From NCBI GenBank assembly GCA_028534125.1, contig CM052816.1, positions 56,112,001-56,176,000 of the forward strand: DNA of 64,000 bases, written 5' to 3'. Under the pieces are notes generated by a model, which searched no databases, was not told where the DNA came from, and saw only the letters and a list, made by a program, of their open reading frames with translations. The stretch is from Lama glama (taxonomy: Eukaryota). Below, piece by piece: positions 7,055 to 47,139 of this stretch (position 1 is its first letter; each line of letters begins with the position of its first letter). The position numbers and the translations under genes are program-made.

Positions 7055-7374
7055 GTAATGGGGGGAAATAACCAAATTTTTTTTATAGTTAGAGTGTTCC
7101 AGTGTTGATGGCTTGGCTGGGGCACTGTAGGATATATATTTGCCTCAACTTTAACATGCACAGTCCTTCTGGAAAATTAAATTATACTAGATTTGGTATT
7201 TTAAGTTGCAGTCAATAATATTCCATATATTTGCATCTTTTGTAACCTTATTCATTCATATCTGGATAAAGCATTATTTACCAAATATTTGAATACCTAT
7301 TGCTTACGTAGTCTCTGACCAACATAGTCATTTTAATTTGTTTTAATTAGGGAGACACTAATTAGACACTAATT

Positions 7375-7430
7375 CACAACACTGTAAAATGATTATGAAT
7401 CAATAAAAAATGTTAAAAAAAACAAAAAAA
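7375..7430 (+). mobile_element. Extremely 5'-truncated young L1 3' tail
   Basis: AATAAA plus A tail; 18-bp TSD actaattagacactaatt at 7357-7374 and 7431-7448. Confidence 0.8.
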
Positions 7431-7496
7431 ACTAATTAGACACTAATTAGATCAGATTAGTGAGGAAAACTTGAATGGAGTATTTTAAAATAAAAT

Positions 7497-13039: not shown

Positions 13040-13242
13040 TTTTTTCTTTTTCTTTTTCTTTTTGAGTAAAGGTAGATTTGTTCAGAAAGATACATACTCC
13101 ATAGACAGAGTGCAGGTTGTTTCAGAAGGCAAGAGAGACAAAGGTCACGAGATGTGGGGGTTGGGTACTTACTTTAAAGTAAAAGTAGATACACACTCCA
13201 TAGACAGAGTGTGGCCCAGCTCATTCAGAAGGGAGAGTGGCC
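13040..13242 (-). mobile_element. Poly(A)-tailed ERV-LTR-like retrocopy with internal duplication
   Basis: T-rich tail 13040-13063; 25-bp repeat 13088-13112 / 13187-13211; flanking cattttggt repeat. Confidence 0.55.
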
Positions 13243-18962: not shown

Positions 18963-19150
18963 GTCTTTTTCATTTGTATTTTCTCAGCATGGCGCTGTTT
19001 ATGGTACAGCTTAGCTTTCAGACCAATCATCTTTTTTGCCTTCTTTGAACGTTCATGAGCCTCTCGGCCTTCCTTCTTTCTCTTTTTCTCATGGTAATCC
19101 AAACGGTATCCATAGCGCTTACGGTGTAACTCAATATATTCGTTTTGTGG
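18963..19150 (-). CDS. NSA2: NSA2 exon 2
   Basis: [21 protein letters not shown]...IQMKK, conserved Nsa2 N-terminus. Confidence 0.97.
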
Positions 19151-19774
19151 CTGTAGCAATGCAACAGGCGTTACTTTAATTTTAAAAAACTGCTGACAAA
19201 ATTATTCTTTAATACTTTCTTTTGAGCAGCATATAAAGTACAGAAGATCCAATGTCATCCACCATTCACTTGATTAAGTAACTCTTGCACTATTAAGCCT
19301 ATTCACATGATGTAAGTTTTTTTTTTTTTAACTGAAGTATAGTCAGTTTACACTATGTCAGTTTCTGGTGTACAGCATAATGTTTCAGTATACATGTACG
19401 TACATTTTGATCCTGAATGATATGAGGCATTAAGATTTACATCTGTAGTAATCTCAGTGAAAGTTACTGTTCATTGAAGGGAACTGTCCAAAATCCACCG
19501 GACCACAAAAGGGATAAACTGATTCCAGGATCTCTTTTCTTAATATCAACAATCTTGTTTTTCAGTATCATCATTATTCATACTTCTTATTTAAACATTT
19601 AAAAATTTTACTCAGTTTTATTGAAGTATAATATACATACATACAGTGGAATGTGCCCTTTTCAGGTGTATATATAGAGTTATAAGTTTTGACAAGTTCT
19701 ACAGTTCTGTAATCACAATCAAGACTGAGAATATTTCCAACACCCCAGAAAGTTCCCTTGTGTCACTCTGGTCA

Positions 19775-19809
19775 GCGCCGCTGGTGTAGTGGTATCATGC
19801 AAGATTCCC
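19775..19809 (+). pseudogene. Tailless retrocopy of tRNA-Gly(CCC) 5' half
   Basis: GCGCCGCTGGTGTAGTGGTATCATGCAAGATTCCC; 16-bp TSD cccttgtgtcactctg at 19755-19770 and 19808-19823. Confidence 0.9.
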
Positions 19810-20867
19810 CTTGTGTCACTCTGAAGTCAATCCTCTTTTTCCACCTTCAATTTGGTATCTATTGTTCTAGTTTTGCCTTTCCCAGCAGGAAATGTAAACG
19901 GAACCTACAGTAATGAGGATTTTTCATCTACTTTTTCACTTAGCGTAAGACTTTGAGATCCCCTCATGTTACATATATCCACACTTCAATTTTTAATTAA
20001 CAAGTAGTATCCCACTGTATGGATACACCACCGTTTGTTTATTTATTTACCAAGTGATGGATATTTGGGTTGTTTCCAGTTTTTAGTGAGTAAATACTTG
20101 CACCTAAGTCTTTGTGCGGACATATGCCAAACTGTTTTCAAAGTGGCTGTACTAATTTGCGTTTCACCAACAATGTGTGGGATCTCCTTTTGCTTTTTAA
20201 GTGCCTGTTTTATTTTATACAGTAATGTTTTATTTTAAACATGCGGCTCCATTCCATGTGTACTTTTAAGACTACAAAAATAAAACAATGCAAAGCCAAC
20301 TCCCGTACGGAGAGTAAAGTAACAACGAGGTAGTTGGGATCAGGTGTGGAGTTTTCAACTGCTATCACATAAACTTTGCAGCAACCGTGAGAAAGGTCTG
20401 AAGAATGCCATTTTGCAGAGAAATAGAGATTAAAGATGTAGTAAAAAAGACAGAATCTGGCAGCCCGATTTGGGCTGTATGCTTGGTTCTGCAATTCATT
20501 AGTGGCTTGGCTGGTGACAAGGTGTGCCTTCAGTGTGCTCCGCAGAGATGAGAATCAATGCGAGATTAAATCCTACGGTAGAGTTATCAGTAGGCTCTGA
20601 CACTGATGTCCACACAACTTTCAGCGAAGCCAGGAATTGAATAAAGTGAAACCCGTCTGGCTCCAAAGCCTGTGCTCTGGCAAATACCCGACTCTATGGC
20701 CCCAAAGTGAACGTCTTCACTTTACAGAGCGCACCGCACGGTGTCCACCCTCATTCCCTCAACAGTACCTCACTTCTGCCTACCACCTCTCACTGCCAGC
20801 CCCAGCGCCCTCAAGCCCCGCCAACTCTGATGCCGTCGGTCGCGAGCGCCCGAGGAGACCCTCTCAC

Positions 20868-20870
20868 CAT
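20868..20870 (-). CDS. NSA2: NSA2 exon 1 coding part (ATG only)
   Basis: GCCGTCACC-ATG|GTGAGA on minus strand; exon lengths sum to 783 nt = 260 aa + stop. Confidence 0.92.
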
Positions 20871-21129
20871 GGTGACGGCCGCCGAGCCGCCGGGTGCAGC
20901 AGCCGGGAAGCGAAGAAGCTCTCAATTTTCGGGTCTCAGAGACCCACGAGCCGACTACACACCACCAGCGACAGGAAAGGGACGCTTCTAAAAAGGCCGA
21001 CTTCAGAGAGAACGCAACGCAGCCGTTCCGACCCTCGGTTCTCCACTTTCAGCTAGAAGTGCGGAAGTTGCTGGCCGGCGGCCTTTGAGTGGGGCACCAC
21101 CGGAAGTGGTGAAGAGCGGCGCTGGCGGA

Positions 21130-21343
21130 AGTGGTAAAGCGCAGCGCCGGCGGAGGCAGAGGGCAAGAGCGGCGCCGGCGCGGGGAGAGCGAAAGAAATT
21201 AGCTTCCCTCCGCCCGTCCCTGGGCGTTCGCTGAGGTAGGGCGTCGCGACAGAAGGCCTTTGCAAGCTTGGGGGCGGCCCGCACCTCCGCTCTCACCAGC
21301 CTGGCGGGAAAAAGCCGGCCTTCGGTATGCGACCGAGTGACAG
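21130..21343 (+). other. GFM2: GFM2 non-coding exon 1 (start approximate)
   Basis: Strong donor CAG|GTGAGT at 21343/21344 (weaker alternative GAG|GTAGGG at 21235) within the island. Confidence 0.65.
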
Positions 21344-24300
21344 GTGAGTACCAAGTCGCGCGTGCGACTCCCGCGTGTTTAGAGCCCTGCCCCACGCTGG
21401 CCAGCGGCCACCCTCCGGGATGCCACAGCTAGGCCTGGACGAGGACGGCAGGGCCTTCCACATCTCGCCTCTCGACGTCCGCCCAGGTGTGGGCCTTTCT
21501 CTTTCTCTTTCAGCGAGAGCGGCTCTTCTTTGTTCCTGTCATCTTGTGTAATGTGTGCAAGGTTGAGAAGGATGCAGAGGAATGAAAACTTAACTGTAGG
21601 AGAAAGCAAAATTGGTAAAAGCTGTAGGAAAGAAAGACAACGCCCTGTTTTTCTAGACTGGTACCTGAAATTCCTGGGGCCTTTTGGTGCACAGGACGGT
21701 GCTGAGCGTATTTGCATTTAGTGGTCCTCTAGTGCTGCTATATGTACTGTCACTGTAAGACAGTACATCTAACTCAGGAAGCGGCCAGTTTTACCTTTTT
21801 ACTGCACAGTCACAGGAGTTCCCTTAATTACTCCACCGTCTGGAACGTCCTTCAGTTACGTTGCGAAAGTCACATTAGTCACCTCTCTAGGTCTTAGTGT
21901 GAATTTCAGGCAGGTTTTTAAGGCTCCATCTTCTAACTTGATTGTCATTTTATTTAAAACTCGAACAAATTCTAACTAGCGTTTGTATGTTTTCAAGTAC
22001 AGTAAGATACGTAAGTAACCTCTTCTTGGAATGCACTTCCTTCTGGTGTTGCCTTTCTCACCTACAGTCAGGTCTTTTCTTAAATGTGTACTGTTTTATT
22101 GAGGCCTTCCCTGACCTCCTTACTTAAAATTAACTACTGCCCCTGTTCCCCTTTCCTACTTAATTCTTCTGTATAGCACCTATCACAATAAAAAGTGCTA
22201 TGTTTTTAAGTTTATTTCTTTTGTTTATTGTCTGTTCCCACTGACTAGGATACATTATTTCTGTTTTGTTCTTGTCTTTTGTTCACTACTTTTAACCCCA
22301 TTACCTAGAGGGCAACAGTAGACACTCAAATTCTTGTTGAATAAGTGAATTTAATTCTCACGTGGATCCTGTGATGTGATGGATCACAGGCTCAGAGATT
22401 TGACGTGAAGATCAAAGAAGACTTGAGACTTTAGCAAGTCCTCTGTAAAGCCTACTCCGGCCTCTTCACCACAAGTGAAGGGCCCAGTTGACATTTCTCT
22501 TACAATTTAAAGTTTGTGGAGAGTTTTTAAAAGACTTTTTATTGACATGCAGTAATTATGACACACAGGAAAATGCATCCTGGAGATGTATGTTTTAGTA
22601 GGTTTTCAAAACCTGAATACACGCATAATAAGCAGCACCCAAAGCAAGAAATTGTGTTAACCTGTGCCCGAGAAGCCCACTCCCAGGGTTGAACCCTATC
22701 CGGACTTCTAATTGAGTGGATTAGTTTTGCCTGTTTTTAATTGGAATCACACAGTGTGAGTGAACTCTTTTGTGGTGGTTTCTTTTGTTTAACATTGTGA
22801 GATTTATCCTTATTTCCTGTTGTAGCTCTTTCTGTTTATAGAAATTTTTAATAGGTTTGTTTAAATTGTGAACTCATCAGTAGTTTTTTCTTAAGTCTCA
22901 GAGCCATAATGTCCTTTTTCCTTCTGAATCAGGAATAGAAAATAAATGGTTTCAAATGTTAAGCAGTAGTCACATTTTGATTTGTGTAAAATAGAGGCAA
23001 AGTGGTCAGCTATCTTGTTTTTCTTCATACTGTGTTCTTTCATCTGTGACTGTGGGATAAAAATGGCCTAAACAGATCAATGTCAGCAAAAAGCTCTCTG
23101 AAAAAAACTTCTTTCTGTGTACTTGGCAGTAGCCAAGTTGGGTATCATCACTACTTTGTTACATTTGCCAAAAATATTTACTAAATACTCACTCTTTGCG
23201 TTTTGGCTATCAGAAGTGTAAAAATGTGTTCCTCTGATCTGTATGAGACTGTAGGCAGTATTGGTGTAGACAGGATTAGAAGGATAAGCCAGGAGGATGT
23301 GAGAACTGCTTTATAAATAGTGTTAAAAATATCAAGCTTATTTGTGTTAAATAAGGAACAGATACAGTATTAAGAGTCATGCAAAAAGCATTATGAATGA
23401 AATGTTTGTTGTGATATGCAGGAGACAGAGTAGGGTTTTTAAAGTTAACTTTTTTCTTGAAGTCGGGGATCAGGTGTTACTCATTTTTATGTTTGCAATA
23501 ACCATCTCCTCGTGTTGCTCCAATAAATGTTAGATGATCAGGGATTTGGAAAGTGCTTTTTCAGGCCAGGTGACCTAAATTTAAGAGTATCTTTACTGAG
23601 CTTTTTTTTTTTTAGCAAGTAAAAGTTGATTTGTCAGATTTTCTTCTACAGTGAAGTTAAAGGCTAGAACTAATTTTTAAAATTTAGGTGAATAGCTTGT
23701 TCTAGAACTTGTGACATAAATTTTGTTGTGAAAATGAGTTTAAGTTAATAGCTTGAGTTTATCTATTCAACATAAAAAGAAAAAAGGCAAAGATGATATT
23801 AGGGATTGATGTTAATTAATAATGAACATATTGGTCTAATTCACATTTGATACTTTTAAAAAACATTGGATAAGACACAGATCTGAATTAAAGTTTCTAA
23901 TTTAGGGAAAATTACCAAGTACAGTAACAAATACCATATGCAAACACAGATTATTTTAACCTAATCCTTTAGGTCTCTTTTCCTGCATTGCTTGATCCTC
24001 AGCAGCAACATCTCAGTTCTGCTTGCATACTGATGTGTTTTGTGATTGCCCTTTGTGTCCCATGATTCCTGTTTGTGTGTATTTAGCCTTACAGGCATTT
24101 TTTAAAAATGGTTCTTGGGTTCTTTTATTTACTGGTAGTGTAATTTGTTGCTAATAATGTAGAATGGGTATTTACCCATTTTCTCGCATTACCAGTCCTT
24201 TTTAGACCGTCAGGTGTTACAGTGTTTAGCGAGTATGTATTGCCCAAGGCCTAAGGAATTCTGGGCTTTGTGAAATAACTCGCTTGATAGCACCAGTAGG

Positions 24301-47028: not shown

Positions 47029-47139
47029 CGGGGGAGGAAGGTATAGGTTTTTTTTTTTCTTATGGAGGCACTGGGGATTGAACCCAGGACCTTGTGCATG
47101 TCAAGCATGCACTCTACCACTGAGCTATACCCTTCCCCT
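47029..47139 (-). mobile_element. tRNA-Ala-derived SINE (vic-1-like)
   Basis: Minus-strand head gggtatagctcagtggtagagtgcatgc; flanking tcaaac[a/g]ttta repeat. Confidence 0.85.

Follow-up and report, generated by a model that had tools for sequence, protein, structure and literature searches.

The window analysed here is a stretch of 64,000 nt of the Lama glama genome, and the insert that we describe lies in an intron of the minus-strand gene NSA2. A match to NSA2 residues 2-64 (E 1.4e-32) identifies the exon that begins at 19150, and exon 1 ends with ATG, followed by GT, at 20870-20866. From the strand of NSA2 and these exon bounds it follows that the insert is antisense within intron 1, with the acceptor about 600 nt and the donor about 1040 nt away. 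A GC-rich island occupies 20800-21500 at NSA2 exon 1; it is apparently a promoter common to NSA2 and a plus-strand gene arranged head to head with it, probably GFM2.

Structure of the insert and its host sequence

The insert comprises 39 letters, namely a 4-nt leader and the front part of a pre-tRNA-Gly, and it is set between the two copies of a short duplication (Table 1). The last two C's of the tRNA piece are common to that piece and to the 3' repeat, and the junction has a run of 4 C's, where tRNA and target have 3 each. The insert has kept both of its CpGs, and its junction passes straight into the repeat without an A tail. Pairs of exact 16-mers no more than 100 nt apart are present at a few other places in the window (24 overlapping matches, the first 20 of them listed). 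A 16-nt repeat is thus not unique by itself, and its weight rests on its position around a perfect tRNA match.

Table 1 Features of the insert and its surroundings, in window coordinates
Feature	Position	Strand	Observation
TT before the duplication	19753..19754	+	position of TT in the TT/AAAA-type target of the L1 endonuclease
Target-site duplication, 5' copy, 16 nt, opening with CCC	19755..19770	+	100% identical to the 3' copy
GTCA, 5' leader of the L003 pre-tRNA	19771..19774	+	identical 4 nt precede +1 in gene L003 and copies L009, L010 and L032
tRNA-Gly-CCC bases 1-35, ending at the anticodon	19775..19809	+	35/35 to L003 and L005
Target-site duplication, 3' copy, 16 nt	19808..19823	+	exact direct repeat of the 5' copy
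Old dispersed repeat hosting the insert	19672..20000 (bounds approximate)	.	paralogous loci
NSA2 intron 1	19151..20867	-	exon matches and splice site

The fragment was not detected as a tRNA by ARAGORN or Rfam, and no B-box-like motif was found in 19771-19960. Six weak Rfam matches nearby (E about 2-6.5) were put down to chance. A functional tRNA gene or a tRNA SINE would have a cloverleaf, or an A plus B box, a body and a tail; the insert fits neither description. It is a tailless retropseudogene, a class that is already known. It is a 5'-complete, 3'-truncated copy of a cellular RNA (bases 1-35, 35/35, where the class begins at a length of at least 30 nt), without oligo(A), flanked by an exact 16-nt duplication within the 8-35 nt of the class, and truncated in a loop with two to three C's shared with the target. 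The A-rich target TT/WAAAAWW, a class average, is not seen at this site, which reads TT/CCCT and keeps only the TT part. The first-pass annotation had described most of this anatomy. Its 35-nt match to tRNA-Gly-CCC up to the anticodon, 16-bp duplication, intact CpGs, missing A tail, GTCA extension, position in NSA2 intron 1 and old host repeat are all present in the window.

The insert sits in an old dispersed repeat, called an L1M fragment in the first-pass annotation, whose non-tRNA matches in the same genome are 74-89% identical. In the 15 host-repeat paralogues examined, the duplicated segment is present as a single copy and the tRNA piece is absent; these are paralogues rather than the orthologous site, and their local alignments are noisy, with a single 40-46-nt gap at the insert in 3/15. 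No empty allele was found among 40 scored matches of the locus in the same genome. Nineteen sequencing runs carrying four organism labels hold 0.80-0.96 of the words of the locus, a measure by which filled and empty alleles are indistinguishable. The absence of changes over 69 nt sets an upper age limit of about 11-19 My under assumed rates, so that the insertion, earlier called recent, is only loosely bounded in age.

Several other features were observed in the window. An 18-nt direct repeat at 7357-7448 surrounds a short segment that contains AATAAA and an A-rich tail; it is probably the end of an L1, heavily truncated on its 5' side, together with its duplication. A 17-nt direct repeat at 13096-13211, with copies 99 nt apart, resembles repetition within an older element, and a tandem duplication with a spacing of 24 nt runs from 31891 onward. 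At 47063-47134 on the minus strand, an ARAGORN call of tRNA-Val(GAC) is followed by an A run; this element looks like a tRNA-derived SINE head or an A-tailed pseudogene rather than a gene.

Related copies and their target sites

We searched the same genome (2.35 Gb) with the 35-nt piece as a pattern and with the reversed pattern as a control. The piece matched 15 places with at most two mismatches and 20 with at most three, and the reversed control gave 0. Two of the matches, both without mismatch over 35 nt, are the intact tRNA-Gly(CCC) genes L003 (G000:C3:3110994) and L005. Apart from the genes there are 18 places, which make up 14 loci, the window copy included, when the short contigs L011-L015 are counted once. 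These five contigs hold one Gly-CCC copy with identical flanks, and represent either a multi-copy region or assembly redundancy. Both genes carry CACTTAC just upstream of their leaders (L003:1481-1500 and L005:1481-1500), which suggests an old duplication that took in the flank.

All 14 copies end at the anticodon or within two bases of it. When the gene was used with its flanks as a BLAST query, 17/19 matches ended at query positions 54-58, where the anticodon ends at 55, and the other two were the genes themselves; none of the 19 was a 3'-half-only piece. Such searches detect only copies that are nearly complete at the 5' end and would miss those whose synthesis aborted on modified bases of mature tRNA. 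For a tRNA with two genes, Gly-CCC is unusually prolific in copies. Corresponding 5' halves were sought for other tRNAs and were found in 0/21 Pro, 0/8 Arg-CCT and 0/20 Arg-TCG matches.

The target sites follow a common pattern. Duplications of 9-19 nt flank 14/14 copies, some with mismatches and that of L007 degenerate. The first base of the duplication is C in 13/14 (p 5e-9; L031 is ambiguous), and TT precedes the duplication in 7/13 siblings with a clear target start (p 6e-5). An A follows the target C's in 11/13 copies, which fits A37 of the tRNA and equally the A preference of the endonuclease. The Gly targets, TT/C(C)(C)A, are the TT/AAAA site of L1 with its first bases swapped for ones that pair with the anticodon. 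The duplication, the TT/C target and the 13 siblings support the earlier reading of the insert as a microhomology-primed tailless retrocopy.

The extent of the microhomology is smaller than had been proposed. The likeness between the target aagttccc and the tRNA end aagattccc is literally in the sequence; as a primer, the usable part is 2-3 nt (CCC). The aagtt part falls outside the duplication, across the nick from the primer, and the junction still reads CCC where the target has fewer than three C's, so TT is not part of the primer. We also considered a longer stretch of tRNA-like target sequence on the upstream side of the nick and rejected it: over the 14 copies, the four bases before TT match the tRNA at the level of chance (mean 1.0, against 1.15 expected; the offsets of L031 and L032 are one base off).

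5' leaders and the state of the template

Upstream of +1, gene L003 reads GTCA and gene L005 reads AAGTA. GTCA is found in four copies (Table 1), and the L005 leader is matched over 5 nt in three others (L001, L004 and L011). A leader match of 4-5 nt is thus present in 7/14 copies (p 2e-11 by flank composition), or in 6/13 without the window copy (p 1e-9). The 5' ends of the 14 copies lie 2-7 nt upstream of +1 and are never flush with it, and 13/14 have A at -1. The GTCA copies begin at a G after C, and the L005-type copies at or beside an A after T, as expected for Pol III starts. The first-pass annotation had asked whether GTCA is the genomic leader of a tRNA-Gly-CCC gene. It is identical to positions -4 to -1 of L003 and recurs in three independent copies.

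Four further copies carry AACA before +1: L006 (G000:C5:48729220), L008 (C6:227234), L030 (C4:71871155) and L033 (C36:42656829). No Gly-CCC gene with this leader was found among the BLAST matches, of which only L003 and L005 are full-length. It may stem from a third gene, lost or unassembled, or represent the L003 leader as it once was. At L008, the host has an AACA of its own immediately behind the 3' repeat. The remaining 3/14 copies have extensions of 2-5 nt without a leader match, although the TA of L031 fits L005.

As a control, 14 5' copies of tRNA-Lys-CTT were fetched together with 17 candidate genes (8 copies plus 6, the latter from 40 scored of 91 candidates). All 14 carry 3-7 extra nt, and seven of these extensions match the sequence upstream of a gene by 4-8 nt. 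In copies L080, L082, L086 and L116 the extension is of a (C)CGGC type that is absent from the 17 candidate genes fetched. The extension of the single Thr copy examined consists of the last 4 nt upstream of its gene. Over the three tRNA types (Gly, Lys and Thr), 0/29 copies are flush at +1. Since the Lys-CTT copies and the Gly siblings are extended at the 5' end alike, the template is normally a pre-tRNA. A copy of a cleaved mature 5' tRNA half would start at +1 without a leader, and the insert has one of 4 nt. The term 5' half, as applied to the insert earlier, describes its length and does not point to a cleaved half as the template. Among the modified bases on which the copying of mature tRNA could abort is m1G9, which tRNA-Gly-CCC presumably carries and which presumably blocks the L1 reverse transcriptase. 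An account of m1G9 is given in an excerpt of PMC10275265.

The 3' junction and the route of insertion

More than three C's stand at the junction in 7/14 Gly copies (13, 7, 6, 6, 4, 4 and CCCCTCC), against extra junction bases in 0/14 Lys copies (Fisher p 0.006, a post hoc comparison). In five of the 14 (L001, L004, L008, L010 and L032), the run exceeds the C's of tRNA and target combined, so bases were added. The clearest case is L001 (G000:C1:4967830-4967864, minus strand), an unmutated copy with a 13-C run at the junction and an exact 15-nt duplication. The single extra C of the window copy and of L006 could have arisen through off-register pairing. Extra C's are found in 3/3 unmutated copies and in 4/11 others, a difference that is not significant (p 0.19). 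Their presence in unmutated copies, including the 13-C run, does not suggest later expansion, with the reservations that the trend is not significant and that short-read run lengths may be inexact. The extra C's are best read as stutter of the reverse transcriptase on the anticodon. According to the available part of PMC3415434, slippage of ORF2p at priming lengthens A tails at insertion. The Gly-CCC junctions resemble this expansion of new Alu A tails by L1 ORF2p in their extra bases at the priming site, which in the Alu case are explained by weak initial pairing and re-annealing; the Alu template is a long terminal poly(A), whereas that of the Gly-CCC copies is a run of only 3 C's, internal to the RNA and placed in a tRNA loop.

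We propose, with a probability of roughly 70%, that the window copy arose by an L1-type nick, priming on the anticodon of an intact nascent L003 pre-tRNA, a slip, and copying to the start of the transcript. First, an L1-type endonuclease/reverse transcriptase would nick germline DNA at TT/CCC. The freed 3' end, GGG, would then pair with the anticodon, CCC, which lies in the open loop of the leader-bearing nascent pre-tRNA-Gly-CCC from L003, and the enzyme would slip, or pair off-register, by one C. Reverse transcription would run back to the putative first transcript base at -4, and a second-strand cut 16 nt away would give rise to the duplication. The length of the duplication and the TT/ pattern point to L1 ORF2p as the agent. 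As judged from its sequence, the product, which is without a B box, T arm or tail, is most likely an inert and silent fossil. The short pairing counts against the proposed priming. In the part of PMC3649969 at hand, four terminal matches gave efficient priming in vitro, on a poly(A) template only, and the 2-3 nt of the window fall below that number.

The main alternative, though an unlikely one, is that the same L1 machinery used a leader-bearing 5' fragment, left by an earlier cut of the pre-tRNA in its anticodon loop and perhaps tailed with oligo(C) or CCA, and was primed at the 3' end of this fragment; the extra C's would then have come with the RNA. Such a template would agree with the termination of 14/14 copies within two bases of the anticodon and with the 5/14 C runs that are longer than tRNA and target C's combined. 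In-register copies speak for an uncut loop, since 4/7 of their junctions continue through A37 and U38 of the tRNA (pairing with U38 in 4/7, against 0/7 for the others, p 0.07, not significant). Stress tRNA halves derive from mature tRNA, whereas the Gly copies retain their leaders. tRNA halves have been proposed as templates of tRNA/L1 chimeras (preprint 10.1101/2025.02.02.635956, as excerpted); by contrast, the accessible text of PMC5322556 reports no truncated RNAs that match the break points, in a test of 5S and U2 only and of A tails only. That the template was uncut is our inference.

Far less probable is a mature tRNA, or a mature 5' half, as the template, with GTCA derived from the host (through a longer duplication and a later loss of 2 nt) or untemplated. 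The host does read AAGTCA directly after the 3' repeat, which puts GTCA 2 nt past it (chance about 1.4% over four offsets), and 9/15 host paralogues continue with AGTCA or AGTTA, like the window after its second repeat (by eye, in noisy alignments). Taken alone, the GTCA of the window copy could thus be host-derived. Yet GTCA stands at the same place in three unrelated loci whose hosts lack GTCA after the 3' repeat, the L005 leader recurs in three others, and flush starts are missing from all the copies of the three tRNA types. Finally, the least probable route is one that does without the endonuclease, in which RNA, cDNA or gene DNA is captured while a pre-existing break is repaired: it would account for the short microhomology and the non-A target, and the part of PMC2912911 seen describes 3' microhomologies of similar length in endonuclease-independent L1 insertions and tailless copies, but the duplications are clean in 14/14, TT precedes the nick in 7/13, and the copies end just upstream of +1 and never contain 3' parts of the gene, a pattern that the capture of DNA would not produce.

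Comparison with known elements

Because the leaders differ by gene among the 14 copies, each copy derives from a tRNA gene and not from a master copy. Human chr16.trna34 is, we assume, the same Gly-CCC isodecoder as the one studied here. The supplement of PMC5322556, as far as available, contains 16 human GlyCCC copies, of which nine are from chr16.trna34 and five of those nine are 35 nt long. Tailless retropseudogenes (Schmitz et al. 2004, as described in the excerpted text of PMC5322556) are 'processed or unprocessed', truncated in loops, and have 2-18 nt of target complementarity; that text gives a duplication of 8-35 nt, no A tail and a consensus target TT/WAAAAWW with A-rich priming, allows 20 nt for precursor sequence, and favours internal priming 'by default'. 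The Gly-CCC copies share with this class the complete 5' end, the 3' truncation at a loop, the absence of an A tail, the duplication and the short target complementarity; unlike the published examples with A-rich priming, they are primed on C's (TT/C).

Two other groups are related. tRNA/LINE-1 chimeric insertions (10.1101/2025.02.02.635956, as excerpted) likewise contain a tRNA segment of about 1-37 nt, duplications and an L1 signature, whereas the duplication in the window encloses no L1 sequence, the flanking repeat being the older host. tRNA-derived SINEs share the tRNA head, the duplication and L1-type mobilisation; unlike them, the window copy has no B box, body or tail. The less familiar features are the extra C's at the 3' junction and the AACA leader without a surviving gene. 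Neither extra junction C's nor a gene-by-gene assignment of leaders was found in the excerpted text of PMC5322556, and a literature search for oligo(C) junctions or leader assignment in a limited library found nothing, which is weak evidence (further background is in PMC3747384, as excerpted).

Implications

The single insertion in NSA2 is probably neutral and at most a clean presence/absence marker. As a family, the copies could say more about the L1 reverse transcriptase. It is possible, and we put it forward tentatively, with the odds against its being both true and unpublished, that this enzyme hardly ever takes tRNA other than as nascent pre-tRNA not yet cleaved by RNase P, and that a telomerase-like stutter on the anticodon C's leaves oligo(C) in place of an A tail. 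The copies would then be a fossil record of the tRNA genes active in the germline and of their exact start sites, including the AACA leader of a lost or changed gene. The C runs provide a testable handle on internal priming versus pre-cut RNA, a choice settled only 'by default' in the available text of PMC5322556. The C-primed targets indicate that pairing between RNA and target can prevail over the preference of L1 for A-rich sites. Lastly, the near-universal retention of leaders would place the capture in the nucleus, within the short lifetime of the pre-tRNA.
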